Below, one piece after another: positions 23,701-63,816 of a stretch of DNA of 64,000 nt; position 1 is the stretch's first letter, and every line of letters begins with the position of its first letter. A program made the position numbers and the translations under genes. Below the pieces are notes generated by a model. It was not told the origin of the DNA and did no database searches. It was given only the letters and a program-made list of their open reading frames with translations. Source of the stretch: an uncultured Gammaproteobacteria bacterium (GTDB lineage Bacteria > Patescibacteriota > Patescibacteriia > UBA11705 > JABHMO01); assembly GCA_964565345.1 (NCBI GenBank), contig CAZMEQ010000002.1, positions 7,133 through 71,132 of the forward strand. The letters are read 5' to 3'.

Positions 23701-26700
23701 ATCTAAATATTCTGCACCCAAATCACACTCTTCGTTACCATTTTTAACACCATTGCCACAGCAAGCTGAACTTCCAGACAATTCAGCGGGCGTGCAAGCC
23801 GCAAAATTATCCCAGAGACAAGTTTCAATGTTACAATTGGCGATTGGTGGCTCACACTCTTCGCCAGTTGAAATTGTTCCATCACCGCAAACAGCTCTAT
23901 ATTTTACACTTCCTTTCAACAAACAATTACTATTACAAGTTGTAGAAACCTGAGTATTATAAACATTATTAGTTATGGTCGCGAGTGGGGCTCCATCAGT
24001 TGCGCCATTATCGGGGTCATTTGTAGACCAGTCCCAGTCATAGTTGAGTGGGTTTAATAATTGGCCATTGGGCGAACACTTGTCTGGGGCACTGGCTGGT
24101 TGCACTGCGTAATTTATGGTCTCGCCTGGAACGCCAGCCACATAACCACCAGGAGTTACGCCAACTGAGTTAATGACGCACTGGTTAGGATCATTTTTTG
24201 TTTTAAAGACCCAGCTAAAACTATTAAATGCTGCCCCGGGGATAACACCCGTTGGATCATGGTGATAATTTAAGTCAATTAATTTTACCCCACTAATACT
24301 TTCCATATCTCCAGAAATTACAACGCGGTGGTAACGATTAGGCAACAAATTCATGTTATTTACCAAATCGATTGTTAACAAATTTTGACCGAAAGAAACG
24401 CCAGCAGCCGGCGCATACAAATAATTTAAATTCAAGGTAACACCAGGCAAAGCAGAAATTACGGTACACTCTTCAGTATCACAACTATAAACTTTTACAT
24501 TGTTTTGATTTTCCACCACAGACTCCTTCATCTTGGTGTTAAAGTTAACCCCCATTTGAGCGTTAATACAGGCTTCTTTACACTTTGGATAATAACTTGT
24601 AACACGTGGTTCACTAAAATTAATTTCTAAATCAGCTCCCTTCTCGTATAATAAGCTATCAGCTGGCACCACGGCGTTAGCCAATATCTGGACTAAATTA
24701 CTTTCGGTTGTTTCTAAATCAATAGTCGCATTACATTCACACCCCTCACTAAATTGAGAACAACCGCCAGGTTGGCAAACCAACTTATCCGTACGTGTAG
24801 CATAAACGCCAATGTCATTACGTCTTTCGGTTGCAGCTGTACAATATGGCAAAGCACCAGGAATCGGCTCAACTAAGCAGGCATAACCCTTAGCCTCGGC
24901 TTTTTGCGCATCTGCTGCATCTGGAACTGTCCAAACCCACGGCTTATCAATTAAACTTATTTCTTGACACTGGTACATGCCAGTAACCCAGTATTTTTGA
25001 ATTTGTTGTACTGAAGTTATTTTACCTTTAGAAGGCGTCATTAAAAAATTATCAGGGACACAGTCAGTGGCTTTAGTTTTAAAATTCCAAACATAGCTTT
25101 GCGTCATAGTTTTACCTGGAACACCTGGTGCAAAACTATTTGCCGCCACACCACCTGGGCCGCCAACTATTTCTACTTGATACCAAGAATTTGCAAATAA
25201 ATTATACTTATTGCCTGATTTTTGAATTATATTTGGATAGGCATTAGTTCCAGGAGCGCCACCACCAGCATAGCTGGCAAACAAAGAAAATGAAGTCATG
25301 TTTTCATTAGAAGCGGCACAAACACACCCCTCTGTTCCAGGCTCACACTTAGCGCCCAACTTTGTACAAACAATACTGGCCGGCTGAGTACCGACATCAC
25401 TGGGAGCGATATTAGATAATTGACTGGAAAGACAATTAGGTGCGGTACAAGCAGTAAAGTCACAAGGAGTCTCGCTATCCGAAGCAAGACAACGTCGAAT
25501 AATAACATTGCCATTCAAGCTTGCTTCGTTAATTAACATGTTAAAGGTTGCTGAAATCAACCCATTAGGACAAGCTAATTTATCCTCTTTTTTAGGCGAA
25601 GGCGATTGTCTATAACCAGCATCAGTAGCAAAATCAGTCACAAAACAATTTCGTTCAATAACAGCTGGAATTTTAGGGATTACTCCAGTACTCATAACCC
25701 AAGCATACTCAGACTCATGGGTTACAATAGTAGAGCCACAAACATCTTCTTTGGTTGTTTTCGTTCCTTTGTTTGTACAAACTCCATTAGAACAACAAAA
25801 TTGATCGGCCTTACAAGATTCGTCATTTTTACAAGCACCAACCTTAAATTCAATAGCATTGCTTGCAACTGAACAATCTCCTCCCTCCAAACGAACACCG
25901 CCCGTAATTGCCTCGGCCGGAACGCGTGCCTTTTCTATAGTTTCAGCGCCCCAAACAATATCCCCCGCTTCATTAACCGGAATACGGTTGTCCTTATCTT
26001 TTACAAAAGTTAAATTATATAAATCTTTAGTGCCAAAATTTTCACCTGTGACTGTAAATTCTGTAGCAGCCGGTCCATTGCTTGGAGATAAACCGCACAA
26101 ACCCGGACCCGGAGCATTAGTGTTTACCACAAAGAAACGGTTATTACTTGGTAAACTCTGGCTTGTAATAACCTGGACCCAATAATTACCAGGACTTAAA
26201 CTCATGGCCTGATCGCCCTGTAACTTATTTGCTTCGGGCACCTTAACTATAATCTCGGTATCAGACCAGCTTCCAGCACCACAAGCAAAATCAGCAATAA
26301 AAGCAGGCAAAGGATTTCCATCCTCATCAGTTGCCTCTACAAATCCACCCTCGCCATTGTCCTCCAAAAGTTTTAAAATTACTTGACCCTGGGCGTCGCC
26401 AAAATTACTGCCAGCAATACTGATCATTTGTTTTACCGGAGCACTTTCTACACAAGTACAATCTGGTGACCCCACGATACAACAACTGTCATCAGCCTTT
26501 TTGCATGTTTTTGGCGTAATTTCAGTGATCGTAGGTAGTGCTCCTGGGTTTCTTACCGTAAAAGAAACAGGATTACTCAAAACATTAAAACAACTACACC
26601 CTGGAGAGCCTTGCTCACAACTTTCAATACAAGATTCAGCGCCAGATTCACAACCGTCTTTAACTTTGGAACAACGCTCCCCCTTACCAACAACAACATC

Positions 26701-29112: not shown

Positions 29113-31266
29113 TTATCTTTCGATATTGCTCAAAACACATTCATTTAGATCTTCGGGGCTGGCTGGATTTATCCGAGTCGGCTTATAATCACCCTCCGAT
29201 GGACAACAGGAAACACCATAAGTTTCAGCTGTAATATCATCACCATCCGTATCAGTGCAGTCTAAATTGCTTTCATTCTGAACAGTTGATGTTTTTTGAG
29301 CATCTAAATTTCGGCTCGGCGTAAAACAATTTTGGCGCATATCACGGACTTGCGCCTTAATAACAGGCATATAAACTGGACCATCTGGAAGAGGTTCTCC
29401 CGGAGCCGGCTCTGGTACCTTGGCAAAAAGACCATGAGCCATATTTATCGTATTCATTAACGTACTTGGTGGGGCCGGAATTTCTAAATTCGGATCAAAC
29501 CAACTGCTGTAATTTTGACCATAAAGATAGACTTCGGTATCAACCGTAGCTGGATCTAACCCTTCATTAAAAATAGCTCTAATAGGAACATCAATCTCAA
29601 CATTTTCTGAAACATTTTTAGGTATTAATTCAACAATAGCTGGTGGAGTTAAATCTATGGCACTTCCCACACCAAAAGACCAGTCATCATAATTATCATC
29701 GGGCTGACCATCCGCCTTTCCATCATTATTACCATCAAGCGCATTACCCGCTAAATCAGCAATACCAGTTCCCAGTAAAGCGATTTCAGCCTCTTCATCA
29801 ATTTCGGCAGACTTAACCAATCCTTCTAAAATCTTATCAGCTGGTAAACAAAAAGCTTTTTCTCCGCAACTGTTTTCTTCTACCCCCTCACACTCCATTG
29901 AAGATATAAATTGAATTGTTCGGTATTGATTAATCCCGGTTAACCATTTACCAGGGACATACGAAGTAGTACAAGTCCCCACTTTTTCACCTGCGGCTAA
30001 TTTTAACTGCGCCTCGTTCACATCGCTTGTCGCATTACAAGCTGTTTGGTCTGTTCCGCCCAATAAAGGTAAAACTGGCTCATTAAAATTAACAACCACT
30101 ATTTGATTACGGAAAACTTTTGGCACAGCGCAATCGGCGTCCACACCAGGAGTACACAAGCTACTATCTGTTACTTTATCATCAATTCCAGCTTGATTAA
30201 CAGGAATAACGGAGACTATTTTCGGCGGTGTCAGATCAACGGCTGTACTGGTAGTGAAGCGCCAATAATAATCCCGAGGGTTGCTAAAAACAGACATCCC
30301 TGCCGGAGATAAACGCTTTATGCCATTGGCTCCACTCAACATATGAACCACGTAAGTTACGTTTTCTTCTGAACTTCCCAAATAATTAGACGAGCCAACC
30401 CCATTACCATAGGGATTAAAAACAACGGAACGTCTATCCTCTGTTATTAAAACAAAACCAGGAACAATGTCTTCAAAGTTCTCTGGGTCACTAATTTGTG
30501 CGTTTAAACAATCCGAGGGTGGAGTTCCATCTGGCCAATCAGGCATTTTATCGCAACGATATAACTTAAACGTATTCTTATTAATTGGACCACAAACAGA
30601 CGAATCGGCTGGACAGTCATCATTGGTACATTTAGTAATCGCTTCTGGACAACCTGTATAAGCCGAACTTGAGTCCATATCAATAAAAGATTTTTCTTCA
30701 ATTGGCATTTTAAATGTAACCACGACCATGGTATTGCGTGGTACGCCGGTTTGCTCCGGATATGGTGAATGCCCCGACAGAATTTCACCAAAAGCATTAC
30801 CCGAAAGACTATAACCCAAACCCTTGGGAATAGTAGAAGTAATAGTATAAGTACCGGTATCCTTATTTAGTAGGGCATTTAAAATAAAGGAAACAATCGA
30901 ATAGGCCGCAAAAATGATGATTAAACCAATGGTCGCATTAGTCATCCACTGTTTGGCCGTTTGCACCTTGGTCGGATCGCCTCCAGAAGTCATATAAACA
31001 TAGCCAGCGTAGAGGATAATAACAAAGAAAACGATCCCCAAGATACCAAGGAAAACCTTAATAATTTTCCCTATGGTTAAACGGATATCGCTCTTTACCA
31101 AACCAGCTTGAGTCCCAACTGTGTCCAACCCCTCCATAGCATCATCGGCCGCGGCCTGAACCGGTGAACTTAAAACTGGCATAAATAAAATAACTGCCAA
31201 CATAAACAACAAACAACTGGCAGTTATCCAAAAAATAAACTGATTTTGATTTTTTTTGACAAGCAT
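29113..31266 (-). CDS. Large (717 aa) exported Cys-containing protein. Its N-terminus is paralogous to that of the giant protein (signal plus pilin-like hairpin).
   Basis: ...TIGKIIKVFLGILGIVFFVIILYAGYVYMTSGGDPTKVQTAKQWMTNATIGLIIIFAAYSIVSF closely parallels the giant-protein N-terminus. Also GLDTV in both. DGNNDGKADGQPDDNYDDW. Confidence 0.7.
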   Translation of the reverse strand: MLVKKNQNQFIFWITASCLLFMLAVILFMPVLSSPVQAAADDAMEGLDTVGTQAGLVKSDIRLTIGKIIKVFLGILGIVFFVIILYAGYVYMTSGGDPTKVQTAKQWMTNATIGLIIIFAAYSIVSFILNALLNKDTGTYTITSTIPKGLGYSLSGNAFGEILSGHSPYPEQTGVPRNTMVVVTFKMPIEEKSFIDMDSSSAYTGCPEAITKCTNDDCPADSSVCGPINKNTFKLYRCDKMPDWPDGTPPSDCLNAQISDPENFEDIVPGFVLITEDRRSVVFNPYGNGVGSSNYLGSSEENVTYVVHMLSGANGIKRLSPAGMSVFSNPRDYYWRFTTSTAVDLTPPKIVSVIPVNQAGIDDKVTDSSLCTPGVDADCAVPKVFRNQIVVVNFNEPVLPLLGGTDQTACNATSDVNEAQLKLAAGEKVGTCTTSYVPGKWLTGINQYRTIQFISSMECEGVEENSCGEKAFCLPADKILEGLVKSAEIDEEAEIALLGTGIADLAGNALDGNNDGKADGQPDDNYDDWSFGVGSAIDLTPPAIVELIPKNVSENVEIDVPIRAIFNEGLDPATVDTEVYLYGQNYSSWFDPNLEIPAPPSTLMNTINMAHGLFAKVPEPAPGEPLPDGPVYMPVIKAQVRDMRQNCFTPSRNLDAQKTSTVQNESNLDCTDTDGDDITAETYGVSCCPSEGDYKPTRINPASPEDLNECVLSNIER

Positions 31267-37748: not shown

Positions 37749-37966
37749 TTATATCCCAACGCTTTAATGCTTACCAGAAAGAATACTCCGACAGTAGAGG
37801 AGGGGCCACTGATCGTTTTTGCTAACTGATAAGCATGAAAGCGCTGATAACCAGCAATATTTCACACAACTTTAAGGCATTCACCTCTCTCTGTCAAGAA
37901 AGCAAAGTATAACACAGCCTATTTCAGCTTTCTTTAGACTAAATTTAGATAAATATTCACCTAAAA

Positions 37967-42694: not shown

Positions 42695-43016
42695 GTGTAG
42701 GGATCTGGATAGAAACCCCAATAACATTGTTGATGATAGGGTAATCACAGATACCCTACAGCGACAGTATAGCGAAATATTTTCAATAAAACAACAAAGC
42801 CGCCTTGCCATACTTCGAGAGCCTCAGTACGACAAAGCAGCTTATTCATAATAATCTTTAAATAAAACGAAAACTCCTAGACCATAGAGCCCAGGAGTTT
42901 TCAATTGAAGTTTCACCTATCATCAACAACATCAGTATAGCAAATTTTTCTCTTGCTGTCAATAGAAAGCCAAAAATAACTTGCATTTTAGAGCGATTGT
43001 GGTTAAATACAATTAT

Positions 43017-44657
43017 ATGACCTATGCGAAAATTAGCGAAATAATTACCCAAAAACAACCAGAATCAACTTTTATTTTTCTAGAAAAAACATACGCTTTA
43101 TTAAAAGACGGCACCAAAGAGCTGTCTTTTATAGAACGAAATAGAGTCTATAATGCAGCTATCAATAGAGCTTACGAAGCCGCGCTCCAGGGCGCTAGAA
43201 CAGAATTTGTTTGTGCGACCATGCTTTTTGATTTAGCAGAAAAAACACCAAACTTTACTACCAAAATACTCCAAACCGTAAACGATAACGTCGCTAATTT
43301 TACTTATTGCTACATACTAGCCAAGCAACGCTTAACCGAAGTCTCCCAACTCGATCATAGCTATCGGACAGCCTTGAGACTAGCCACAATTAAAATAAAT
43401 TTCCCGGCCATTTGCGCGGCCATGCTCCACGAACTTCCAATTCATTCTGATACAAAAGTAGAAGAATTGGCTAAACTTTTTGGCGAGGAAGTTGGAACTC
43501 TTGTAACCAAATTTTTAAATATCCGTGTTATCAAGACTGCCAATAGTAGTCAGTATATTGCACACTTACGCGAGATGGTCGTAGCTATGGCGCAGGACCT
43601 ACGTGTGATAATTATAAAAATGTGTTCAAACATTGATCGCATGGAAAGCTATGGCGTAAACTATACCGCCGAAAAACTTCATGCTGTGGCGACTGAATCG
43701 ATGGAAATTTTAGCCCCATTGGCAAATGTTTTAGGTATCTGGGAGTTGCGTTGGAGGCTTGAGGATTTATCCTTCAAGATTTTACAGCCCGAAGAATACA
43801 AAAAAATTAACCAGCGTTTTAATCCAGACGAGCAAAAAAATAGACAAAGGCACATTCAAAAAATGATAACCCTAATTGAAAAAGAAGCTAAAGCCAAAAA
43901 CATCAAATGCCAAGTCGAAGGACGCTTTAAACACTACTACAGTATCTACCAAAAAATGAAGAACAAGAAAAAAGCCTTCAGCGAAATTTGTGATGTTTTT
44001 GCTTTACGCATTATTGTCTCTGAAATCGACGACTGTTATAGAATGCTCGGCCTTATTCATCAAAACTGGCGACCAAAAAAACGACGCATAAAAGATTATA
44101 TTGCGGCGCCTAAAAGCAATAATTATCGCAGTCTGCACACAACTGTTTTTGGCGTTAATGGGAGACCCACCGAATTTCAAATAAGGACCAAAGAAATGGA
44201 TGACCTAGCGAATTTTGGTATTGCGGCTCACTGGTTTTACAAAAATCCTAAAACAAAAACACCAAACTGGATGCAAGAACTGCTTATTCAACAACAAAGT
44301 TTTAAAGACGATGAAGAATTTTTAGCCGCTTTTTCATCCAGAATTCTCCAAGACCGCATTTATGTTTATACACCAAAGGGAGACGTTATTGCCTTGCCCG
44401 CGAAATCAACACCGGTTGATTTCGCCTATGCCATACACTCAGAAGTAGGCAATAAATGCTCTGGAGCCACTATTAATGATGTGGCGGCGCCTCTTAATGC
44501 CCAACTTTCCACCAACGATGTAGTCGAAATAACTCTGAATCGCGATCAAGCAGGGCCAAAACCTGAATGGTTAAATTTTGTGCAATCAAATAATGCCAAA
44601 AAACACATTCAGGAATATTTGGACAAGTTCCCAGTAGAACGTTCCTTTAGACTTTGA
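43017..44657 (+). CDS. RelA/SpoT-homolog paralog 1. Degenerate HD hydrolase motif, intact (p)ppGpp synthetase and TGS domains, no ACT domain.
   Basis: HD region reads AAMLHELPIHSD (His-Glu instead of His-Asp). Synthetase RIIVSEIDDCYRMLGLIHQNWRP...YRSLHTTVFG...IRTKEMD...GIAAHWFYK. TGS YVYTPKGDVIALPAKSTPVDFAYAIH. The ORF track starts at 42981, but MTYAKISEI is the likelier start. Confidence 0.7.
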   Translation: MTYAKISEIITQKQPESTFIFLEKTYALLKDGTKELSFIERNRVYNAAINRAYEAALQGARTEFVCATMLFDLAEKTPNFTTKILQTVNDNVANFTYCYILAKQRLTEVSQLDHSYRTALRLATIKINFPAICAAMLHELPIHSDTKVEELAKLFGEEVGTLVTKFLNIRVIKTANSSQYIAHLREMVVAMAQDLRVIIIKMCSNIDRMESYGVNYTAEKLHAVATESMEILAPLANVLGIWELRWRLEDLSFKILQPEEYKKINQRFNPDEQKNRQRHIQKMITLIEKEAKAKNIKCQVEGRFKHYYSIYQKMKNKKKAFSEICDVFALRIIVSEIDDCYRMLGLIHQNWRPKKRRIKDYIAAPKSNNYRSLHTTVFGVNGRPTEFQIRTKEMDDLANFGIAAHWFYKNPKTKTPNWMQELLIQQQSFKDDEEFLAAFSSRILQDRIYVYTPKGDVIALPAKSTPVDFAYAIHSEVGNKCSGATINDVAAPLNAQLSTNDVVEITLNRDQAGPKPEWLNFVQSNNAKKHIQEYLDKFPVERSFRL

Positions 44658-44682: not shown

Positions 44683-46134
44683 ATGATTAGCTTACGACAC
44701 TTAATTGATGAAATTCAAAAAAACGATTCCACTGCCGATACTTCATTGGTGGAGCGTGCTTATAATTTTGCCGAAGAAGCACATCGCGGCCAAAAAAGAG
44801 CTAGCGGAGAAGATTATATTCAACACTCTTTGTTAACAGCAAAAACTTTAGCTGAGCTAAAACTACCCATTCCCATTATTATTGCAGGTTTATTGCATGA
44901 TGTGCCCGAAGACACCACCAAAACTTTAGATGAAATAAGAAAAATTTTCGGCTCTGATATTGCCAAAATGGTTGAAGGCATTACCAAACTCGGAAAAATC
45001 AAGTATCGTGGTATGGATCGCTACATAGAAAATTTGCGTAAAATGTTTGTGGCCATGGCTCAAGATATTCGTGTCATTTTGATAAAATTTGCCGACCGCT
45101 TGCACAACCTTAAAACACTTTATGCCCTACCCGAACCAAAACAAAAGCGAATAGCCCTAGAAACTTTAGAAATATATTCTCCAATAGCCAATCGACTGGG
45201 AATTGGAGAACTTCAAGCCCAACTAGAAGATGCTGCATTTAAATATGCTTATCCAGAGGATTTTATAAACATCGAACAAGTCATCAAAAAAAATTACCCC
45301 CTCAAAAAGAAGACTCTTAACAGCATGATCCGGAAAATTAAAAACCGACTAGAACAAGACAACGTTAAATATTCCGACGTATATGGGAGAACAAAACATT
45401 ACTATAGTTACTACCGTAAATATTTAAAATACAATGCGGATCCCAAACAAATATATGACTTAGTGGCTATTCGCGTGATTGTTGAAAATGTCGCTGACTG
45501 CTACACTGTATTGGGAGCCGTGCACAATATTTGGCGGCCTATACGAGGGAGGATTAAAGACTATATTGCTCAACCAAAACCAAACGGCTACCAATCTTTA
45601 CACACTGCTGTTTTTGGCGATGAACAAGAAATTGTCGAAATACAAATTAGAACTAAAGAAATGCACGAGCAAGCGGAGTATGGTATTGCCGCACATTGGA
45701 ATTATAAAGAAGGCAAAAAAAGCCAACAGGAATTGGCCTGGGTTCAGGATTTGGCCAATTGGCTAAAAAACATAAACGACAATGATAAATTTTTAGAAGG
45801 AGCCAAAATTGATGTTTTTCAAAATAGAATTTTTGTTTTTACACCCCAGGGCGATGTCATTGATTTGCCCGACGGAGCCACCCCGGTAGATTTTGCCTAC
45901 CACATTCATACCGACATTGGCGATAAATGTTCCCAGGCGCGTATTAATAATGAAATAGTCTCTTTAAACTATAGGATTCGAAACGGTGATGTAGTCCAAA
46001 TAATCACAGATAAAAATCGTAAAGGTCCCAACCCCGATTGGCTGAGCTTTGTAAAAACCAGAACAGCCAGGCAACACATAGAAAACTACAAAAATAAAAG
46101 TTGGAAATCTTTTTTACCAATATTTTCAAAATAA
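44683..46134 (+). CDS. rel: RelA/SpoT-homolog paralog 2, bifunctional-type with intact HD. It has HD hydrolase, synthetase and TGS domains and no ACT domain.
   Basis: HRGQKRASGEDYIQHSL...GLLHDVPEDT (HD motif). VAIRVIVENVADCYTVLGAVHNIWRP...YQSLHTAVFG...IRTKEMHEQAEYGIAAHWNYK. TGS VFTPQGDVIDLPDGATPVDFAYHIH. Confidence 0.8.
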   Translation: MISLRHLIDEIQKNDSTADTSLVERAYNFAEEAHRGQKRASGEDYIQHSLLTAKTLAELKLPIPIIIAGLLHDVPEDTTKTLDEIRKIFGSDIAKMVEGITKLGKIKYRGMDRYIENLRKMFVAMAQDIRVILIKFADRLHNLKTLYALPEPKQKRIALETLEIYSPIANRLGIGELQAQLEDAAFKYAYPEDFINIEQVIKKNYPLKKKTLNSMIRKIKNRLEQDNVKYSDVYGRTKHYYSYYRKYLKYNADPKQIYDLVAIRVIVENVADCYTVLGAVHNIWRPIRGRIKDYIAQPKPNGYQSLHTAVFGDEQEIVEIQIRTKEMHEQAEYGIAAHWNYKEGKKSQQELAWVQDLANWLKNINDNDKFLEGAKIDVFQNRIFVFTPQGDVIDLPDGATPVDFAYHIHTDIGDKCSQARINNEIVSLNYRIRNGDVVQIITDKNRKGPNPDWLSFVKTRTARQHIENYKNKSWKSFLPIFSK

Positions 46135-48254: not shown

Positions 48255-48298
48255 AGTAAAATTTAGCTAAATTTAGGTCAACCTCACTGCCAACGGGG

Positions 48299-48326
48299 TT
48301 GACTTTTTTATATTTTGTGCTATAAT
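48299..48326 (+). promoter_or_regulatory. Consensus-like sigma70 promoter (TTGACT, 16-nt spacer, TATAAT) with SD AAGGAGG at 48372-48378, driving the GC-rich cassette 1
   Basis: ttgacttttttatattttgtgctataat read directly. AAGGAGG lies 5 nt before the ATG at 48384. Confidence 0.5.
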
Positions 48327-48383
48327 GTAAGGTCGTAAAAACGACAAAAAGTTCTCTACAACAACGCTCGCAAGGAGGTTCCC

Positions 48384-49418
48384 ATGTCTCTGACCCTCAT
48401 CGGTATCATCGGTCTGTCCGTGATCGCGATGGCCGCCCTGGTGACCATGGTGCTGAAGAAGTGCCTGGTCGTCACCGAGTCGCCCAACCTGACCGTCGTC
48501 GGCGACTGGGGGAAGTCGCCGACCGACATCCTCAACCCGCCCTGGGAATTGATCTTCTACCCCGTCACCCAGGTGATGGGGGTCATCACGACCGAGGTGC
48601 AGCGGTACAACATGCCGCAGTGTACCCTGTCGTGCAGAATGCCCGACCCCAACGGTGGGGCAGGCATCGGGAAGATCAACACGAAGGAGGTTTCGCTCTG
48701 CTACCATTTCTACTTCTGGACCAGCAGCGAAATCCGCCTCCACTCACCTGGCACATCACTTCCCGCCGGCTTCTCGAAACTGATGCAACTGCGTAAGTTC
48801 TTCCAGTTCGTGGGATTCCTGGCCGACGGCAAGGTCGACTTCCCCAGCATGGAAGAGGCCCTGAAGGACAGCCTGCAAGGAGCCTTCTCCCAGATCAGCC
48901 GCACGCTGGAACTGGAAGAGGCCATCAACTTCCCGCAGGACAAGCTGGATGAGATCGCGCACGCACTACAGCAGGAGTTCTGGACCGAGGGCCTGCCCGT
49001 CAAGGTGGTGTCGCTCCAGAGGAATGCCCCGTTCGAACCGGAAGGTGAACTGGGCAAGTCCATCGCCGCACGTGTGGCGGCACTGGCCGCACTACCCACC
49101 AAGGTGGCCGAGGCCGAGAATGCCCGCCGTCTGGCGGTCATCAACGCCAATACCGCCCGTGAGGTGGCTGGCATCGAAGTCGAGACGGCAAAGCTGCAGG
49201 GCGACAAAGAAGTCGTCCGCATCGGCAAGGTGCTCGAGGCTTACCGCCTCGTGGCCCTGCCGCCCGAAGAGCAGGTGCGGCAACTCATGAACCTGGAACA
49301 GCTCCAGGTCTATCGCGAGATGGCCGCAAGCTCGAGTGCCAAAATCATGCTGGTGCCGACCGATGTTCTGTCCGGAATCGGCCGCGCGCTCAGCGCTTTC
49401 ACCGGAGGTCATCCATGA
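48384..49418 (+). CDS. SPFH/band-7 (stomatin/HflC/QmcA-like) membrane protein, GC-rich foreign-looking gene
   Basis: N-terminal TM. EAENARRLAVINANTAREVAGIEVETAKLQGDKEV ... LEQLQVYREMAASSSAKIMLVPTD resembles the Glu/Ala-rich helix and SSS.K..MP ending of QmcA/HflC-type SPFH proteins. GC in nearly every third codon position. Confidence 0.65.
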   Translation: MSLTLIGIIGLSVIAMAALVTMVLKKCLVVTESPNLTVVGDWGKSPTDILNPPWELIFYPVTQVMGVITTEVQRYNMPQCTLSCRMPDPNGGAGIGKINTKEVSLCYHFYFWTSSEIRLHSPGTSLPAGFSKLMQLRKFFQFVGFLADGKVDFPSMEEALKDSLQGAFSQISRTLELEEAINFPQDKLDEIAHALQQEFWTEGLPVKVVSLQRNAPFEPEGELGKSIAARVAALAALPTKVAEAENARRLAVINANTAREVAGIEVETAKLQGDKEVVRIGKVLEAYRLVALPPEEQVRQLMNLEQLQVYREMAASSSAKIMLVPTDVLSGIGRALSAFTGGHP

Positions 49419-50059
49419 ACCGAACCGTCACCATCTTCCTGTCCTCTGCCCTTGTGTTCGCGGGGCTCATCCTCGCGGACAGCATGTTCAACTGGGCGTG
49501 GTACTGGAAGGTGGGCGCGGCGGTGGGCCTGGGGATCATCCCCTGGTTCTTCGTTCGTCGATCGACCTCTGCCACCCCCGCAACCCCGGCCGCACCCGCG
49601 GCTGGCACTCGCCCCACCTGCCCCACCACCGCCCGCAGAGACTTCTGGGGCGACACGGCCATCCCGGCGGCAATCACGGTCGCTCTCTGGGCCGCGCTCG
49701 CCTACGGAGTCTGGTTCTGGGTCGTCATCCCGGTCGTGGAATCGGGCAAGGCAGACCCGCAGACCCGCGTCGTGAATAATGGGTTCGCCCATCACGACGC
49801 GACTTACCCGCGGGAAGTCAGTACCCACCCCTTCGAGGCCACCCTGTCGGCCAACCAGCCGACTGCGGTGTTCGAGGTCAAGGCCGGTGATCCCATCAAG
49901 ATCTACCGGCTGGACGCCCCGATCCGCGTCTGGGTCAAGGGGCAGAAGGGCTGGACGGAGTTTTCCACCCCCTACCGGTTCCGCCCCAAGCAGGACGGGA
50001 CACTCATGATTTCCTCTCCAACCCCGGGGAATCATGTGTACATTCACAACGAGGGTTAA
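49415..50059 (+). CDS. Membrane protein (3 predicted TM helices plus a C-terminal beta-rich soluble domain), plausibly the NfeD-like partner of the SPFH protein
   Basis: ATGA start/stop overlap with the SPFH gene. Hydrophobic helices IFLSSALVFAGLILA, VGAAVGLGIIPWFFV and ITVALWAALAYGVWFWVVIPVV. C-terminal beta-rich segment VFEVKAGDPIKIYRLDAPIRVWVKGQKGW. SPFH genes are commonly paired with nfeD (established pairing). The assignment here is an inference. Confidence 0.45.
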   Translation: MNRTVTIFLSSALVFAGLILADSMFNWAWYWKVGAAVGLGIIPWFFVRRSTSATPATPAAPAAGTRPTCPTTARRDFWGDTAIPAAITVALWAALAYGVWFWVVIPVVESGKADPQTRVVNNGFAHHDATYPREVSTHPFEATLSANQPTAVFEVKAGDPIKIYRLDAPIRVWVKGQKGWTEFSTPYRFRPKQDGTLMISSPTPGNHVYIHNEG

Positions 50060-50102
50060 AAAACGCCCCACTGCAGCAACTGCAGCGGGGCGTCATTTTT
50101 TG
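50060..50102. terminator. Bidirectional intrinsic terminator shared by cassette 1 and the convergent lipoprotein gene
   Basis: aaaaaacgccccactgcagcaactgcagcggggcgtcatttttt. An 11-12 bp GC stem with an A-run upstream and a T-run downstream. Confidence 0.6.
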
Positions 50103-52474: not shown

Positions 52475-52559
52475 GGGCGAGTGGCGAAGTTGGTAGACGC
52501 GCACGACTCAAAATCGTGTGGGGAAACTCATGAGAGTTCGACTCTCTCCTCGCCCACCA
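52475..52559 (+). tRNA. tRNA-Leu (anticodon CAA) with long variable arm and an encoded CCA
   Basis: Acceptor GGGCGAG/CTCGCCC. Anticodon stem cacga/tcgtg with loop cuCAAaa. T-arm gagag-ttcgact-ctctc. Discriminator A then CCA. Preceded by TTGACA-17-TATAAT. Confidence 0.75.
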
Positions 52560-52621: not shown

Positions 52622-53488
52622 TCAGGCCTGACGCACGGGCTTCCACTTGCCCGTGAGGTTCGTCCTTTCCCAGAGACGGATGTACTGTTCCGTCTTCTCG
52701 GATCGGATGCTCTGCTTCAGCAGGTTCTGCGCCTCGACAAGCTCGGGGAAGACCGACCGATCCAGATCCAGCCGCAAGAACCGATACAGATCCGGACCGA
52801 CCTTGAAGGCCGTACGCTGTACCAGAAGCTGGTCAGTCAGCTCGAAGAGCATGTTGGTCGTGGCATCCGTGATGGTGGGATCAGGGCGCACCCGCGCCTT
52901 GAACGCCTCGATGAGCTCGAGCGCGCGCTCGGCCAGGGTCCGATCCACGATGGTGATCGTGTTCACCCGGGCCATGACCCGCTTCAGTCCGTCGGTGCTG
53001 GTGAAGGTCACCTGCGAACGCAGGTTGCCCTTGGCATCTAGCAGATGCGAGAAGACGTGGGCCGTCACGTAGCCCTCGCGCGCGATGCTGGCCAGGACTA
53101 CTGCGCTGTTCAGCGCAAAGACCTGGGTCACCACTTCGTCCGTGGCCTGGCAACGTGCCCGCTCTTCGGCCATGACACGATCGAGCTCGCGCTGCTTCTG
53201 CGCCAGTTCTTCCTGTGCCGCACGCACGGCGTCACGTGCCTCGTCACGCTTCCTGGTCAATTCGCGCGATTTGTCCCGAAAGGCCTTAATGATGCCCTTT
53301 AGACCGGCTTCACGCTTGGTGCCATGTCGCACCAGATCGGCCAGAGCTTCCGAAGCATCGACGTACTGATGGTGCAACCTAGTCCAGGCTGCACGGGCCT
53401 TGGCCTCCGTCTTCTCCAAGACCTCGAGCTTTTTCTCGAGTGCTTTGACAGCGGACTGCAAGGTCCCAATAACTGTTTTGTGTCCCAT
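52622..53488 (-). CDS. GC-rich foreign-looking gene. Hypothetical protein with an N-terminal coiled coil of about 120 aa and a C-terminal globular domain of about 160 aa, of unknown function.
   Basis: 288 aa. Heptad-like Glu/Lys/Arg/Ala-rich N-terminal half (LEKKLEVLEKTEAKARAAW ... RKRDEARDAVRAAQEELAQKQRELDRVMAEERAR). No recognisable catalytic motif. Preceded on the minus strand by TTGACG-17-TATTAT and GAAGGAGG. Confidence 0.6.
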   Translation of the reverse strand: MGHKTVIGTLQSAVKALEKKLEVLEKTEAKARAAWTRLHHQYVDASEALADLVRHGTKREAGLKGIIKAFRDKSRELTRKRDEARDAVRAAQEELAQKQRELDRVMAEERARCQATDEVVTQVFALNSAVVLASIAREGYVTAHVFSHLLDAKGNLRSQVTFTSTDGLKRVMARVNTITIVDRTLAERALELIEAFKARVRPDPTITDATTNMLFELTDQLLVQRTAFKVGPDLYRFLRLDLDRSVFPELVEAQNLLKQSIRSEKTEQYIRLWERTNLTGKWKPVRQA

Positions 53489-59100: not shown

Positions 59101-60441
59101 TTAGCCTTTATTTAATGTTTCATCAATTCTAGTACGATCGCGTGGGAATAGAGTGGCCTTCTTGATATTATCAAGTCCTAATAATTGCCAAGTAACACGC
59201 TCCAAACCCATGCCAATTCCACCTTCAGGTGGCATGCCATATTTAAACGCTTGTAAATAATAGGCATAACCTTCTGGTTTTAAGCCGAATTTGATCATGT
59301 TGTTAACTAACTTTTCGTATTCATTGATACGCTGGCCACCAGTGACAATTTCTGTACCACGGAACAAGACATCAAAACTGCCAGTGAACCCTGGATCGGC
59401 TGGATCTTCATAAGTATACATTGGTCGTTTAGAAACTGGGTAGTGTGTAATGACTAAAAAATCTGAGTTCCACTTTTTCTTAGCGTATTCGCAAATTTGT
59501 CGTTCTTGATGCGGTTCTAAATCTGGTTCATTTAAACAGCCTTTTTCATTATACTCATCTTCAAGAATTTTTTGAGCTTCTTTTAACTTCATTTGTGGTA
59601 CGGGATGGACAAATTCTGGTAATTGAACGTTCAAAAGTTTAACTTCTTCTGGGCAAGCTTCACGAACACTGGCAATCATGGCCTCCAGAGTGCCGTAAAC
59701 CATTTCCATTACATCTTTGTAGCTGTTTATGTAACCCATTTCAAAGTCCAAACTTGTATATTCATTAATGTGACGATTGGTGTCGTGTTCTTCGGCGCGA
59801 TAAACATTCCCAGTTGTAAAAACTCTTTCGTAAATTCCAACCATTATTTGTTTATAAAACTGAGGGCTCTGGCCTAAGTACGCTTTGTTACCAAAATAGT
59901 CGATAGTAAAAACATTAGCACCGCCCTCAGTGGCACCAGCCACAATTTTTGGTGATTGAAACTCAGTAAAATCATTAGCTGTTAAATGTTTTCTAAATCC
60001 TTGAACCAAAGCGGCTTGAATTTTGAAAATAGCTCTTTGTTTATCAGCTCTTAAGTTGAACGGCATGTTGTCGAGATATGCATCCATGTGTAATTCCGCG
60101 TCTAAATCGTAAGGTAAGGTTTCAGCGGCCGCTAAAATCTTTATTTCCTTTGCCAAAACTTCCACATTACCAGTGGCTTGATTAGGATTCTTTTGTTTTT
60201 CTCCACGTTCATTTACAATACCGCGAATTTCTAAAACATATTCAGGTCGTAATTCTGGCAAAACGTTTTTTGACGCTTCATCTAACTCTGCTGGCACCAT
60301 AACCACTTGGACCAAACCACTGCGGTCGCGCATATCACAAAAAACAATCTTGCCCATGTTACGGCGGGCGTTAATCCAACCTTTTATGGTTATCTCTTTC
60401 CCTATTTTTTCTGTAGTTTCACGATTTAATGTTCTTTCCAT
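59101..60441 (-). CDS. aspS: Aspartate--tRNA ligase, archaeal/eukaryotic-type class IIb (possibly non-discriminating)
   Basis: Short (446 aa) class IIb enzyme. Motif 2 YRAEEHDTNRHINEYTSLDFEMGYI. Motif 3 GGIGMGLERVTWQLLG. OB-fold N-terminus. Distinct from the adjacent AsnRS. Confidence 0.7.
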   Translation of the reverse strand: MERTLNRETTEKIGKEITIKGWINARRNMGKIVFCDMRDRSGLVQVVMVPAELDEASKNVLPELRPEYVLEIRGIVNERGEKQKNPNQATGNVEVLAKEIKILAAAETLPYDLDAELHMDAYLDNMPFNLRADKQRAIFKIQAALVQGFRKHLTANDFTEFQSPKIVAGATEGGANVFTIDYFGNKAYLGQSPQFYKQIMVGIYERVFTTGNVYRAEEHDTNRHINEYTSLDFEMGYINSYKDVMEMVYGTLEAMIASVREACPEEVKLLNVQLPEFVHPVPQMKLKEAQKILEDEYNEKGCLNEPDLEPHQERQICEYAKKKWNSDFLVITHYPVSKRPMYTYEDPADPGFTGSFDVLFRGTEIVTGGQRINEYEKLVNNMIKFGLKPEGYAYYLQAFKYGMPPEGGIGMGLERVTWQLLGLDNIKKATLFPRDRTRIDETLNKG

Positions 60442-60517: not shown

Positions 60518-61819
60518 TTAAGGATAAATTCTATTAATCATACGTGGGAATGGAATAGTTTCGCGGACATGCTGCACACCACACATCCAACCAACCAAAC
60601 GTTCCAATCCAATTCCGAAGCCCGAATGAGGTACACTGCCGTATTTGCGCAATTCCAGATACCAAGTGAACGCCTCTTCGGGCAGCTTATCATCGACGAT
60701 ACGCTTTTTCATGGTAGCATAATCATCTTCACGCTCAGATCCACCAATAACTTCGCCATGGCCCTCGGGAGCAATCATGTCAGCGCATAAAGCTAGATCA
60801 CCTTCGCGCTTCATGTAGAAGGCCTTGATATCAGCCGGCCACTTTTCAATAAATAATGGCTTATCAAACTTGCTCATGATCAAAGTCTCGTCATCATTAC
60901 CTAAATCTTCCCCGTCTTTGATATCGGACCCTAATTCTTGCAACATTTTTATTGCTTCTTTATAAGTTAAACGATTGAACGGAGCTTTAATTTTTTCTAA
61001 AGCCGTTTTATCGCGTTCTAAAATGTCTAATTCTTTTTGATTAATTTCTAAAACTTTTTTAGCTACGTGCGCAATTAAATTTTCTTGCACTTCTAAATTC
61101 ATTTTATGATCATAAAAAGCCATTTCTGCATCCATCATCCAGAATTCAGTTAAATGTCTCTTGGTTTTTGATTTTTCGGCGCGGAAAACTGGGCCAAAGT
61201 CAAAAACTTTTCCGAACGAAGCGATCGCTGCTTCGATGTATAATTGTCCGCTTTGTGAAAGATAAGCCTTACCTTCGTCAAAATATTTCATTTCGAATAA
61301 TTCAGTTGTTCCTTCGCAAGCAGCGGGTGTTAAAATTGGTGAATCAATTTTAATAAAACCTTCGTTATTCAAAAATTCATAAATCGCATTAATAACTGTG
61401 TTGCGCACACGTTGGATTGCCCATTGTTTGGGTGAGCGTAACCATAAATGTCTATTTTCAAGTAAGAAATCCGGGCCATGTTCTTTTTTACCAATCGGAT
61501 AATCTTCAGCGCGTTGAAAAAATCTTAAGGACTTAACTTGAACTTCATATTCATCTAATTTGGGGTGTTTAGAAACAGTACCCACAATTTCAACTGTACT
61601 TTCTAAGGTCATTTCTTCCATAACTTTCCATGTCTCAGCATCGACGGCTGGTTGACTAACGATGCACTGAGCAAAGCCAGAGCCATCGCGCAATTGAAGG
61701 AAACCAATCTTGCCCGAAGAACGAAAATTATAAACCCAACCCTTTAACAAAACTTCTTTGTCTAAATTTGCTTTAAGATCTTTAATGTATGTTTGTCCCA
61801 TAGAATTATTATTGTTCAA
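60518..61819 (-). CDS. asnS: Asparagine--tRNA ligase
   Basis: FRAEKSKTKRHLTEFWMMDAEMAF matches AsnRS motif 2 ([21 protein letters not shown]). GFGIGLERLVGWM motif 3. Confidence 0.85.
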   Translation of the reverse strand: MNNNNSMGQTYIKDLKANLDKEVLLKGWVYNFRSSGKIGFLQLRDGSGFAQCIVSQPAVDAETWKVMEEMTLESTVEIVGTVSKHPKLDEYEVQVKSLRFFQRAEDYPIGKKEHGPDFLLENRHLWLRSPKQWAIQRVRNTVINAIYEFLNNEGFIKIDSPILTPAACEGTTELFEMKYFDEGKAYLSQSGQLYIEAAIASFGKVFDFGPVFRAEKSKTKRHLTEFWMMDAEMAFYDHKMNLEVQENLIAHVAKKVLEINQKELDILERDKTALEKIKAPFNRLTYKEAIKMLQELGSDIKDGEDLGNDDETLIMSKFDKPLFIEKWPADIKAFYMKREGDLALCADMIAPEGHGEVIGGSEREDDYATMKKRIVDDKLPEEAFTWYLELRKYGSVPHSGFGIGLERLVGWMCGVQHVRETIPFPRMINRIYP

Positions 61820-62067: not shown

Positions 62068-62979
62068 ATGTCCCGAGTGAGGACAAGATCAACCATTTCG
62101 GACACTCGAATGCTAAGTGAATGGGTCCTTCCTGGTGGACTGTACTACCCCGCTTCAACCTGCGTCTTGGGCGTTGCTATTGCACTGCATGGTGCGCACA
62201 AGAAGAATGAGTTCGGCCTCGGGCTGGGAGTAGGAATCGTCCTCTTGTCGATTTCCACCATACTCATGCTCTCTCCCTCCGTACAGGCTGCATCGGAAAT
62301 CCCCTCCTGCCCGACCTGCTTCATGGTTCCGGGCGAGAAGACCAAGCCCAAGAGCGTCCTGACCACGTCCGAAGTCAATGCCACAAAGACGCCCCAGGCC
62401 TATCCGCAGACCTACTTCGTCGGCCACTACCAGGTCGCGGTGGAACTCTACGAAAACGGCACCACGGCCGTCAGCGGAGAGCTCTACAAGCTCACCATCC
62501 TATCGTACGACGGGCGGATCCAACACGCACAGTTCGTGAATGTCGACCCCACGGTCAAATCCAGCACCGAACCGAACTGCTGGATCATCATGACCAACGA
62601 CTTCCGCGAACTGGAGGGCCTGAGCTTCCACGACGGCCCCCTGGTACCAATGTCCATCTGCTACCAGGAGGGACGCTTCAAGGACGATTCCGAGAGTGAG
62701 CTCTTCCGCTACTTCTCGGATCGCAAGGCCGACATCCTCCAATTGACCCGCGACTGCCGGGCCAAGCAGAGCTGCCTCCTGGACCGCGAAACCACGGCCC
62801 TCATCGTCGAGCTCTTCATCGCCAAGGCGTACCTCGAGCTGTCGGGCTTCAAGCCCGCCCTGCCCGAGAACTGGCACTGCGGGATGTCGCTCGACGAGCA
62901 ACGCCTCCTGGAGATGCGAATCCTGAATCGAATCAAGACGCGTCTCATCGACCACGTGATCCACAAGTCACGTCCGTAG
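62068..62979 (+). CDS. GC-rich foreign-looking gene. Hypothetical membrane-anchored protein with an extracytoplasmic Cys-containing domain. Paralog of the 63115-63816 product.
   Basis: Hydrophobic helices (LGVAIALHG, GLGLGVGIVLLSISTILML). CPTCF. NCWIIMTNDFRELEGLSFHDGPLVPMSICYQ aligns with WCVLVEDTADFYGMAELPMSAGPSVPMVMCLD of the next gene. TTGACA-17-TATCAT lies only 3 nt before the first ATG, so the start may instead be MLSEWV at 62107. Confidence 0.55.
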   Translation: MSRVRTRSTISDTRMLSEWVLPGGLYYPASTCVLGVAIALHGAHKKNEFGLGLGVGIVLLSISTILMLSPSVQAASEIPSCPTCFMVPGEKTKPKSVLTTSEVNATKTPQAYPQTYFVGHYQVAVELYENGTTAVSGELYKLTILSYDGRIQHAQFVNVDPTVKSSTEPNCWIIMTNDFRELEGLSFHDGPLVPMSICYQEGRFKDDSESELFRYFSDRKADILQLTRDCRAKQSCLLDRETTALIVELFIAKAYLELSGFKPALPENWHCGMSLDEQRLLEMRILNRIKTRLIDHVIHKSRP

Positions 62980-63023: not shown

Positions 63024-63056
63024 TACGCAAATTTACCTAAATTTAGGCAAAAACTA

Positions 63057-63085
63057 TTGACATTACCTGTGTTTTATGATATCAT
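63057..63085 (+). promoter_or_regulatory. Sigma70-like promoter (TTGACA, 17 nt, TATCAT) for cassette 4, preceded by the palindrome CCTAAATTTAGG at 63036-63047
   Basis: ttgacattacctgtgttttatgatatcat read directly. Confidence 0.5.
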
Positions 63086-63114
63086 ATAAGCAACCAACTG
63101 CCTTAGGGCACATC

Positions 63115-63816
63115 ATGTTCGACCTGAACAAGATCGTCCGTCGCGTCGCGCTCGAGAACCTCCTGAAGATCGTGCTGCTCGTGGCGGCGCTGATCCTCGT
63201 CATCTTCCGCCTCTCCGGGGAGCTCCAGGCCCAGCCCCGCCCCACGATCGAAGCTGCCGAGTACGCCACCACCTGCTACGAGGACAACCAGTTCCATGTG
63301 CGCAGCACCCCGTCCTGCGGCGCCTCGCACTGCACGTACTTCATCGAGATCTCGAACCGCAAGAACGATGAAGTCCTCATGTTCTTCTGGGCCGACTCGC
63401 CGTTCGTGCAGGTTCTCTCGCCCTGGTGCGTGCTGGTCGAAGACACCGCCGACTTCTACGGCATGGCCGAGCTCCCCATGAGCGCCGGCCCCAGCGTCCC
63501 CATGGTCATGTGTCTCGACAAGCACAGCCGGTGGTACGAAGCCCCCCAGATGGCCATCTACACCTTCCGCTCACGCCTGCGCGAGCTCCTGCCCACCATC
63601 AACAACGGTTCGGGCCAGGACCTGAAGGTCGCCATCGTCGAAGCCCTGGCGCTGCAGGAGATCCTGCTTCGTGCCGGGCAGAGCAGCAACCTGCCGAACC
63701 TCGAGCAGGCGCTCCGTCTCGCCGCCGCTCGCGCCAAGCTCTCCTACTCGCTCATCGAGATGGAGGTCAAGGAACGTTGTGACCGGCGCCTCCAGTTCCG
63801 CGGGCTCTCCAAGTAG
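63115..63816 (+). CDS. GC-rich foreign-looking gene. Hypothetical N-terminally TM-anchored protein with an extracytoplasmic Cys-containing domain. Paralog of the 62068-62979 product.
   Basis: TM LLKIVLLVAALILVIF. Conserved block PWCVLVEDTADFYGMAELPMSAGPSVPMVMCLDKH shared with the upstream gene. The ORF-track start at 63076 lies inside the AT-rich promoter. The composition switch and MFDLNK mark the real start. Confidence 0.55.
   Translation: MFDLNKIVRRVALENLLKIVLLVAALILVIFRLSGELQAQPRPTIEAAEYATTCYEDNQFHVRSTPSCGASHCTYFIEISNRKNDEVLMFFWADSPFVQVLSPWCVLVEDTADFYGMAELPMSAGPSVPMVMCLDKHSRWYEAPQMAIYTFRSRLRELLPTINNGSGQDLKVAIVEALALQEILLRAGQSSNLPNLEQALRLAAARAKLSYSLIEMEVKERCDRRLQFRGLSK

Follow-up and report, generated by a model that had tools for sequence, protein, structure and literature searches.

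Introduction

Proteins of the SPFH/band-7 family are known to form cages, as seen in solved members such as QmcA, HflK/C, prohibitin, erlin and flotillin. The closest described counterparts of the locus studied here are SPFH–NfeD operons of the SPFH1/stomatin type, among them the QmcA (YbbK)–YbbJ pair of Escherichia coli (PDB 8z5g), in which the gene of the SPFH protein comes first and overlaps by 4 nt with that of a small multi-transmembrane (TM) partner of the NfeD type. SPFH subfamilies without an identifiable NfeD exist as well, namely SPFH3/4 and 6–12, HflK/C and the prohibitin-like proteins (Hinderhofer et al. 2009, PMC2636767). Here, we describe a two-gene operon at positions 48384–50059 of contig CAZMEQ010000002.1 (GenBank assembly GCA_964565345.1), counted within the stretch of 64,000 nucleotides that was analysed and that is referred to as the window. 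An earlier note on this DNA had taken the operon, composed of gene 1 (G1) and gene 2 (G2), for a foreign-looking SPFH–NfeD module.

The locus compares with the known systems as follows. Gene 1 shares with QmcA an N-terminal TM anchor with an uncharged lead, to which the SPFH domain is attached directly, as well as a long Ala/Glu-rich helix and a C-terminal Ser-rich motif ending in K..(L/M).P. The order of the two genes and their 4-nt overlap are those of qmcA-ybbJ. Unlike QmcA, gene 1 matches Band_7 below threshold, and the first half of its domain contains an insertion with Cys. Unlike YbbJ and NfeD proteins, gene 2 lacks a detectable NfeD or OB-fold signal, and it has a longer, probably extracellular beta domain and a Pro/Thr-rich cytoplasmic loop. 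In having an operon partner that does not appear to be NfeD, the pair resembles the SPFH subfamilies mentioned above. A second SPFH paralogue or an FtsH gene was not found at the locus, and in contrast to the extracytoplasmic HflK/C, gene 1 is predicted to adopt the cytoplasmic orientation of QmcA. Weighing all the evidence, we consider it likely that the pair represents a vertically inherited, clade-specific membrane module of a small Parcubacteria group, consisting of a highly divergent SPFH protein and its partner, for which a surface-organizing role is the most likely one and whose GC-rich codon usage is actively maintained.

Results and discussion

A translationally coupled membrane operon

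The window covers a part of the housekeeping chromosome (~38% GC) of a Parcubacteria genome (candidate phyla radiation, CPR), with genes for FtsZ/FtsA, an anaerobic ribonucleotide reductase, HisRS, TopA, DprA, two RelA/SpoT proteins, ParAB and ScpAB. The nearest named relatives are Parcubacteria GW2011_GWC2_39_14 and GW2011_GWA2_40_23. Both open reading frames (ORFs) of the operon and their ATGA coupling are present as initially reported (Table 1): in the sequence ggaggtcatccATGAacc, the ATG of gene 2 (49415–49417) lies over the TGA of gene 1 (49416–49418), and a GGAGG motif is located 7 nt upstream. This internal Shine-Dalgarno sequence doubles as the codons of a conserved Gly-Gly in the tail of gene 1, and the ..TGG.. 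tail is kept in alignment A1. At the upstream border, the -35 and -10 boxes of the operon promoter are almost invariant across six lineages. At the downstream border, the predicted fold of the intrinsic terminator has a free energy of -25.2 kcal/mol (z=-4.9), and none of 200 shuffled sequences was equally stable. The pair is a real membrane operon with its own promoter, Shine-Dalgarno sequences and terminator, and its genes are co-transcribed and translationally coupled.

Orthologues of gene 1 and gene 2 are present in seven distinct lineages. Between the close relatives L001 and L017, gene 1 has a ratio of non-synonymous to synonymous substitution rates (dN/dS) of 0.13, and gene 2 has one of 0.27. 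Both ORFs are real genes in the frame given here, and purifying selection acts on both of them. Long antisense ORFs over the region (e.g. [quoted passage not shown] In two public assemblies such an antisense ORF is annotated in place of the G2 orthologue (L007, 1071–1877, and L008, 2960–3661, both on the minus strand). Since stop-free antisense frames are created by high GC3, the gene-2 family is under-annotated in the databases.

Gene 1 belongs to the SPFH family at the profile level

Relatives of gene 1 are scarce, as only six matches were obtained among 5.8 billion clustered proteins. A search of 1.84 billion representatives with the A1 profile yielded 43 sequences, nearly all of them full-length (~320–420 aa). 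Half of the family members that were scanned (19/38) match Band_7 at E<=0.01, the best one at 5.3e-11, and an intermediate sequence, P0024, which matches the gene-1 profile with E=6e-22, has PF01145 on record. When compared with the PDB, the family profile retrieved QmcA (E=4.6e-4) and, weakly, HflC, erlin-1/2 and prohibitin-1/2. Alignment of the family profile with E. coli QmcA by hhalign gave a probability of 95.8% (E=6.9e-9). The long helix of gene 1 (residues 222–272) and the C-terminal part align with residues 171–297 of QmcA. The C-terminal AASSSAKIMLVP aligns with GSSSNSKVVMMP of QmcA; that is, the SSS-K-MMP ending of QmcA/HflC-type SPFH proteins, to which the earlier note had likened this region, has a counterpart in the SSS-K-..P tail of gene 1, which faces the QmcA ending SSSNSKVVMMP. 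The N-terminal TM segment proposed before was likewise recovered, as a single helix comprising residues 5–23 that is found in 37 of the 38 family members.

Gene 1 has no match in PHROGs, NCBIfam or PADLOC, and a scan of viral contigs detected no homologue. A locus search with alignment A1 returned one GTDB species and four metagenome loci. Judged from the profile comparisons, gene 1 is a very divergent SPFH/band-7 protein, and its family appears to be confined to ~40 sequence clusters that all belong to one CPR clade and always lie beside a pilin-domain gene. The SPFH assignment made previously holds at the level of the family and its profile, i.e. by the Band_7 matches of the family members and the alignment with QmcA, whereas the Band_7 scan of gene 1 itself remained below threshold.

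Gene 2 is found in the genomic position of NfeD

A conserved family with three TM helices and a beta domain follows gene 1 in every lineage, and in at least five lineages the two genes overlap by 4 nt. The orthologues have a common plan: TM1 and TM2 form a hairpin, a basic loop rich in Pro, Thr and Ala leads to TM3, and a C-terminal domain of ~95 aa follows, in which the motif NGF..HD is conserved. In the AlphaFold2 (AF2) model, which was built from four sequences and reaches a predicted local distance difference test score (pLDDT) of 62 overall and ~80 in the beta domain, the latter is composed of seven strands over ~75 residues. The architecture described in the earlier note, in which a beta-rich tail comes after three hydrophobic helices, was seen in the model as well as in the analysis of TM helices and charges. 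Foldseek matches of the beta domain in the PDB comprised double-stranded beta-helix, cupin, cNMP-binding-roll and enterotoxin-type sandwiches, all with E>=2e-3, and those in BFVD were unnamed virion and jelly-roll-like proteins. In the model, the beta domain appears to resemble small jelly-roll/cupin sandwiches rather than the OB fold that had been envisaged for it.

The distribution of charged residues provides information on the topology of both proteins. In the gene-1 family, K/R residues are absent before the TM helix and present after it, as in QmcA, and a cytoplasmic location is therefore probable for the SPFH domain with its coiled coil. In the gene-2 family, K/R residues occur at the N-terminus and in loop 2 whereas loop 1 is acidic, and therefore the beta domain is probably located outside the cell. 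The positive-inside pattern is consistent across the two families.

It is conceivable that the locus is a canonical SPFH–NfeD operon and that gene 2 is an extremely diverged NfeD, whose OB-fold barrel would reside on the SPFH side of the membrane. Gene 2 falls into the same architecture class as NfeD, with TM helices and a small beta domain, the gene order and overlap correspond to qmcA-ybbJ, and NfeD partners are reported to diverge to ~21% identity and to evade sequence searches (PMC2636767). However, a Pfam scan of gene 2 and five orthologues produced no match at E<=1, PF01957 (NfeD) included, the gene-2 family profile retrieved no NfeD chain from the PDB, and hhalign of gene 2 with E. coli YbbJ gave a probability of 0.3%. 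Moreover, the OB fold is absent among 50 PDB and 50 viral (BFVD) Foldseek matches, the model has seven strands as compared to five in NfeD, and the charge bias places the beta domain on the outer side of the membrane. Searches of PHROGs, NCBIfam and PADLOC also yielded no match for gene 2. We regard a diverged NfeD as quite improbable: gene 2 occupies the genomic position of NfeD, but neither sequence comparison nor the model supports homology. Of the SPFH–NfeD pairing put forward in the earlier note, what stands is the arrangement of an SPFH gene with a coupled membrane partner, while the NfeD identity of this partner is not supported.

The gene-2 orthologue at L001 (11026–11655) was also compared with L002, L003 and L011. 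These contigs, which originate from independent samples, are 100% identical over >10 kb, apart from an indel of 3 nt in the part of G2 that encodes the Pro/Thr-rich linker.

The pair is conserved at one locus

The genes at the locus are arranged in the order RelA, RelA, type IV secretion system (T4SS)-pilin-domain protein, G1, G2, a convergent lipoprotein-like gene of 198 aa, ParB and ParA, and the pair resides at the same place in every relative with readable context. The full order from the pilin-domain gene to ParA holds in L001–L009; where it holds, gene-1 identity amounts to 60–66% (L001–L007), 41% (L008) and 29% (L009/L010). The trio of pilin-domain gene, G1 and G2 is also present in L013 (~24% gene-1 identity) and L014. 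In the closer relatives L001, L005, L007, L008 and L012, the 130-nt region upstream of gene 1 is more conserved than the coding sequence, and the conserved elements comprise the terminator of the pilin-domain gene, the -35 box, the extended -10 box and GGAGG. The stem of this terminator is preserved in the orthologues through changes on both arms (alignment A7).

When pairwise identities are compared, the matrices of G1 and G2 are ordered in the same hierarchy as the matrices obtained for ParB and for the 198-aa gene. Comparison of the window with L001 reveals identities of 93% for ParA, 85% for ParB, 60% for G1 and 33% for G2, and the pair evolves faster than the neighbouring genes. Profile, locus and viral-contig searches found no homologue of gene 1 in a GC-rich, viral or any other context, and no integrase, transposase or repeat boundary was found at the pair. 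The same locus, the conserved promoter and the congruent matrices argue that the pair is ancestral to this small Parcubacteria group and was inherited vertically, and a foreign origin is not supported by these comparisons. The earlier note had called the operon foreign-looking and had brought up a link to defence islands, but the pair is syntenic with a promoter region that is conserved in the closer relatives, its divergence matches that of the host clade, neither gene has a PADLOC match and the neighbours are housekeeping genes.

An ORF-limited force maintains the GC-rich composition

G1 and G2 have a GC content of 62–65% in a genome of 38% GC. At the start codon of gene 1 the GC content jumps from 0.40 to 0.63, and just past the stop codon of gene 2 it drops from 0.60 to 0.33. 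GC3 is 0.81 for G1 and 0.83 for G2, and in the window it is strictly bimodal, with 36 genes at 0.28–0.37 and five genes at 0.76–0.89, which bears out the GC-rich set already pointed out in the earlier note. Codon usage of the pair is fully inverted, with CTG, ATC, AAG and TTC in place of TTA, ATT, AAA and TTT. The first and second codon positions (GC1, GC2) and amino-acid usage are shifted too, that is, K, I and N are fewer and A and R are more frequent. At third positions A (0.05–0.12) and T (0.06–0.14) are depleted equally, which rules out an adenine-specific process as in diversity-generating retroelements.

A composition of this kind, with GC3 of 0.81–0.83 against ~0.3 in the host and inverted codon usage, is what an operon recently acquired from a GC-rich donor and not yet adjusted to its host would display. 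However, all sampled relatives, including those with an identity as low as 24–29%, share the locus, the promoter and the coupling, the divergence of G1 and G2 is congruent with that of ParB, and GC3 of 0.73–0.90 is kept past synonymous saturation. In addition, the searches for homologues in GC-rich or viral contexts and for an integrase or repeat boundary were negative, as mentioned above, and the 5' untranslated region (5'UTR) and the spacers are AT-rich. Recent transfer is largely refuted by these data, and we assign it a very low probability. The pair resembles GC-rich horizontally transferred islands in AT-rich genomes in its sharp break in both GC content and the usage of codons and in that such genes are mostly of unassigned function. 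Unlike in these islands, the genes of atypical composition are orthologues in conserved synteny, they agree with the host phylogeny across saturating synonymous divergence, and the break follows start and stop codons instead of island borders.

The possibility that the composition is a relic of an old transfer was addressed with the help of the flanking genes, whose synonymous sites are saturated between the window and L001, L005, L007 and L008 (proportion of synonymous differences, pS, 0.65–0.78; identity at four-fold sites 0.23–0.41, as compared to ~0.29 expected by chance). According to our own calculation with a simple two-state drift model, in which GC3 tends to an equilibrium of 0.3, ~90% of an inherited GC3 excess should be lost with one synonymous substitution per site and lineage. 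Yet, GC3 of the orthologues (G1/G2) is 0.73/0.76 in L001, 0.79/0.78 in L012, 0.82/0.81 in L008 and 0.89/0.90 in L005. Saturated flanks and the predicted loss thus exclude an old-transfer relic, and a persistent force is needed. In distant relatives the GC3 excess is weaker or nil (0.51/0.57 versus 0.33–0.45 in L009; 0.50 versus 0.33 in L014; none in L013). The trait became stronger in one subclade.

[quoted passage not shown] The GC-rich genes evolve 2–5x faster than their neighbours at the protein level, the shift in GC1, GC2 and amino-acid usage is as predicted for a pressure at the nucleotide level, and gBGC-like effects on GC3, which have the right direction, are documented in bacteria (PMC4450053). 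However, the shift ends at start and stop codons, and both the 5'UTR and the spacers that separate GC-rich genes have remained AT-rich, including where their sequence varies. The adjoining pilin-domain gene, although hypervariable, has a normal GC3 of 0.35, and the synonymous substitution rate (dS) is not raised in the GC-rich genes (0.33–0.57 versus 0.55–1.19). Gene conversion would not be expected to respect the limits of ORFs, and its reported effects in bacteria amount to a few GC3 points, not 50. Taken together, gBGC appears unlikely as the source of the composition. A k-mer search of the GC-rich islands for an uptake sequence or a Chi-like motif revealed no repeated GC-rich motif.

A persistent force that is restricted to ORFs maintains the GC-rich composition, which is not the trace of a recent transfer. 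Selection on codon or mRNA composition fits this restriction. As a tentative proposal, which we hold to be possible but rather doubtful, at least five vertically inherited genes of the window (GC3 0.76–0.89) could be written in a second, selectively maintained codon dialect, which would be limited to ORFs, leaving out promoters, UTRs and spacers, and mark a small set of genes of the envelope or the host interface. Such a dialect would be distinct from horizontal transfer and beyond any reported gBGC effect, and it would persist in G1, G2 and G3 past synonymous saturation. If true, it might serve to insulate the translation or mRNA stability of these genes from the rest of the genome, or to fit them to the codons preferred by a host or partner that is rich in GC. 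Searches of the literature for sets of GC-rich genes or for SPFH modules in CPR/Patescibacteria yielded no relevant publication.

A putative surface-organizing module

By analogy with known SPFH proteins, gene 1 may be anchored by its single N-terminal helix and oligomerize through the helical region into a membrane ring or cage that delimits a microdomain. Gene 2 would be produced in a fixed ratio by virtue of the ATGA overlap, as a dedicated resident partner or client of this cage, and its three TM helices could sit in or at it. In this manner gene 2 may connect the cage with its small, fast-evolving domain, a beta-sandwich that probably faces outward, and its basic Pro/Thr-rich loop would be cytoplasmic. 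The pair may organize or stabilize membrane complexes at the cell surface, i.e. at the contact to the host of this presumably episymbiotic cell, and the Cys-rich, pilin-anchored protein encoded next to the pair may be part of them. As the pair always lies beside the gene of a hypervariable Cys-rich surface protein, a role in a surface membrane complex is most likely. The earlier note had suggested a membrane scaffold for the other foreign products, for which no supporting evidence was found; the conserved neighbour is the surface protein with the T4SS-pilin domain.

Several points weigh against the module as proposed here. The PF01145 (Band_7) match of gene 1 itself is sub-threshold (E=0.049; 14.1 bits as compared to the gathering score of 23.6 bits; residues 154–247). 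The AF2 model of gene 1, calculated from an alignment of six sequences, is unreliable (pLDDT 49.6), and its fold is therefore deduced from homology and not seen in the model; the top six Foldseek matches of this poor model in the PDB are prohibitin and stomatin, but are non-significant (E>=0.8). The gene-2 model has only four sequences behind it and an overall pLDDT of 62. The topology is predicted only from the charge bias, and in that case the membrane would separate the SPFH domain from the beta domain of gene 2, which would limit their contact to TM helices and a loop. Finally, the link to the pilin-domain protein is one of adjacency, and a terminator and a promoter separate it from the pair.

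Neighbouring genes and further features of the window

The coordinates of the operon and the surrounding features are compiled in Table 1.

Table 1. Operon elements, adjacent genes and other GC-rich genes in the window
Feature	Position	Strand	Description
Upstream neighbour, Cys-rich surface protein, 717 aa	46101..48254	+	C-terminal T4SS_pilin (PF18895) two-helix membrane domain, Pfam E=3e-6; start codon uncertain
Palindromic 19-nt motif AAATTTAGCTAAATTTAGG	48259..48277	.	Between stop codon and terminator of the pilin-domain gene; candidate operator
Terminator of the pilin-domain gene	48276..48309	+	Hairpin and T-run, read in the sequence; 3' arm shares sequence with the -35 box of the operon's promoter
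Sigma-70-type promoter	48299..48326	+	TTGACT, 16-nt spacer, TG-extended TATAAT; 11/12 positions match
Shine-Dalgarno sequence of gene 1	48372..48378	+	AAGGAGG, read in the sequence; GGAGG invariant in alignment A7
Gene 1 (G1), 344 aa	48384..49418	+	TM anchor ~5–23, putative divergent SPFH/band-7 domain, Ala/Glu-rich helical region, C-terminal SSSAKIMLVP
Internal Shine-Dalgarno sequence of gene 2	49404..49408	+	GGAGG, read in the sequence
Gene 2 (G2), 214 aa	49415..50059	+	TM1-TM2 hairpin, basic Pro/Thr/Ala-rich loop, TM3, C-terminal beta domain with seven predicted strands
Intrinsic terminator	50063..50101	+	Interrupted stem of 13 bp followed by CATTTTTT; separates the operon from the convergent 198-aa gene
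Convergent neighbour, 198 aa	50108..50704	-	Lipoprotein-like signal MKKVF...FSFSAC; precedes parB-parA; GC3 0.29
GC-rich gene	52622..53488	-	
GC-rich gene	62068..62979	+	
GC-rich gene	63076..63816	+	
GC-rich ORF	from 63959	+	Runs off the window

The extracellular part of the upstream pilin-domain neighbour is hypervariable, and the protein is 33% identical to its L001 orthologue, as compared to 93% for ParA. A pilin-domain gene is located directly upstream of the SPFH gene in L001, L008, L009 and L013 according to Pfam records, and in L014 according to a reading of the C-terminal sequence. This neighbourhood bears on another explanation, in which gene 2 is a T4SS component similar to TrbD/VirB3 and the locus a remnant of a virB2-virB3-type cluster. 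In line with this idea, a JGI record identical to G2 (P0007) is named 'type IV secretory pathway TrbD component', and the upstream gene has T4SS_pilin and weak TrbC/VirB2 domains. However, gene 2 matches neither VirB3 nor TrbD (Pfam E<=1, NCBIfam E<=0.1), neither the annotated portion of the window nor the orthologous loci revealed genes for VirB4, VirB6 or VirD4, and the SPFH gene separates the 'pilin' gene from gene 2. Moreover, the pilin-domain proteins are large surface proteins here and not pilin subunits. A secretion origin of gene 2 is therefore highly improbable. A second T4SS_pilin-domain protein of 717 aa, which has a Big_5 domain, is encoded at 29113–31266 (minus strand), directly upstream of a giant ORF of 3780 aa (17755–29097, minus strand). 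In this genome, large surface proteins thus seem to be anchored in the membrane by domains of the pilin type.

The convergent 198-aa gene sits between G2 and parB in every sampled relative, and no family match was obtained for it in Pfam and NCBIfam. Each of the further GC-rich genes carries its own AT-rich promoter, ribosome binding site and terminator. The gene at 52622–53488 is syntenic and GC-rich in the relatives, with 65% identity to L001 and a dN/dS of 0.10 (L001 versus L017). It encodes a protein of 288 aa with an N-terminal coiled coil, whose C-terminal half matches phrog_846 (E=1e-7). A weak match to DUF3164, a family of Mu-like phages, was also observed for this protein, and the gene adjoins a tRNA-Leu (52475–52559). 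The viral-contig scan detected no homologue of it.

The palindrome upstream of G1 (AAATTTAsCTAAATTTAGG; 48259–48277) recurs as an exact copy at 63029–63047, upstream of the GC-rich gene at 63076, and with three mismatches at 37938–37956, upstream of dprA, whereas shuffled sequences predict 0.1 matches. Its core is conserved in L001, L005, L007 and L012, and the motif may be a shared operator. Upstream of the pilin-domain gene lie the tandem RelA/SpoT-type genes (42981–44657 and 44683–46134, plus strand), whose orthologues contain HD_4, RelA_SpoT and TGS domains. Tandem class-II aminoacyl-tRNA synthetase paralogues, which are 27% identical to each other, are encoded at 59101–60441 and 60518–61819 on the minus strand.

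Implications

The operon adds to the SPFH family a CPR-restricted and, as judged from profiles, very divergent subfamily, whose partner takes the position of NfeD without detectable homology to it and which is linked to pilin-anchored surface proteins. The module may therefore provide a lead on how ultra-small episymbionts organize their contact surface. The unusual part of the finding is the old, vertically inherited and ORF-limited GC-rich recoding. By the criteria of GC content, GC3 and codon usage, the genes would be flagged as recent transfers, and yet they are old and vertically inherited. It would be worth identifying the force behind this composition, whether selection that acts on codons or mRNA, or a conversion process of an unusual kind. 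If an ORF-limited force indeed holds genes at GC3 of 0.8–0.9 in a genome with GC3 of 0.3, composition-based calls of horizontal gene transfer in CPR would have to be made with caution.

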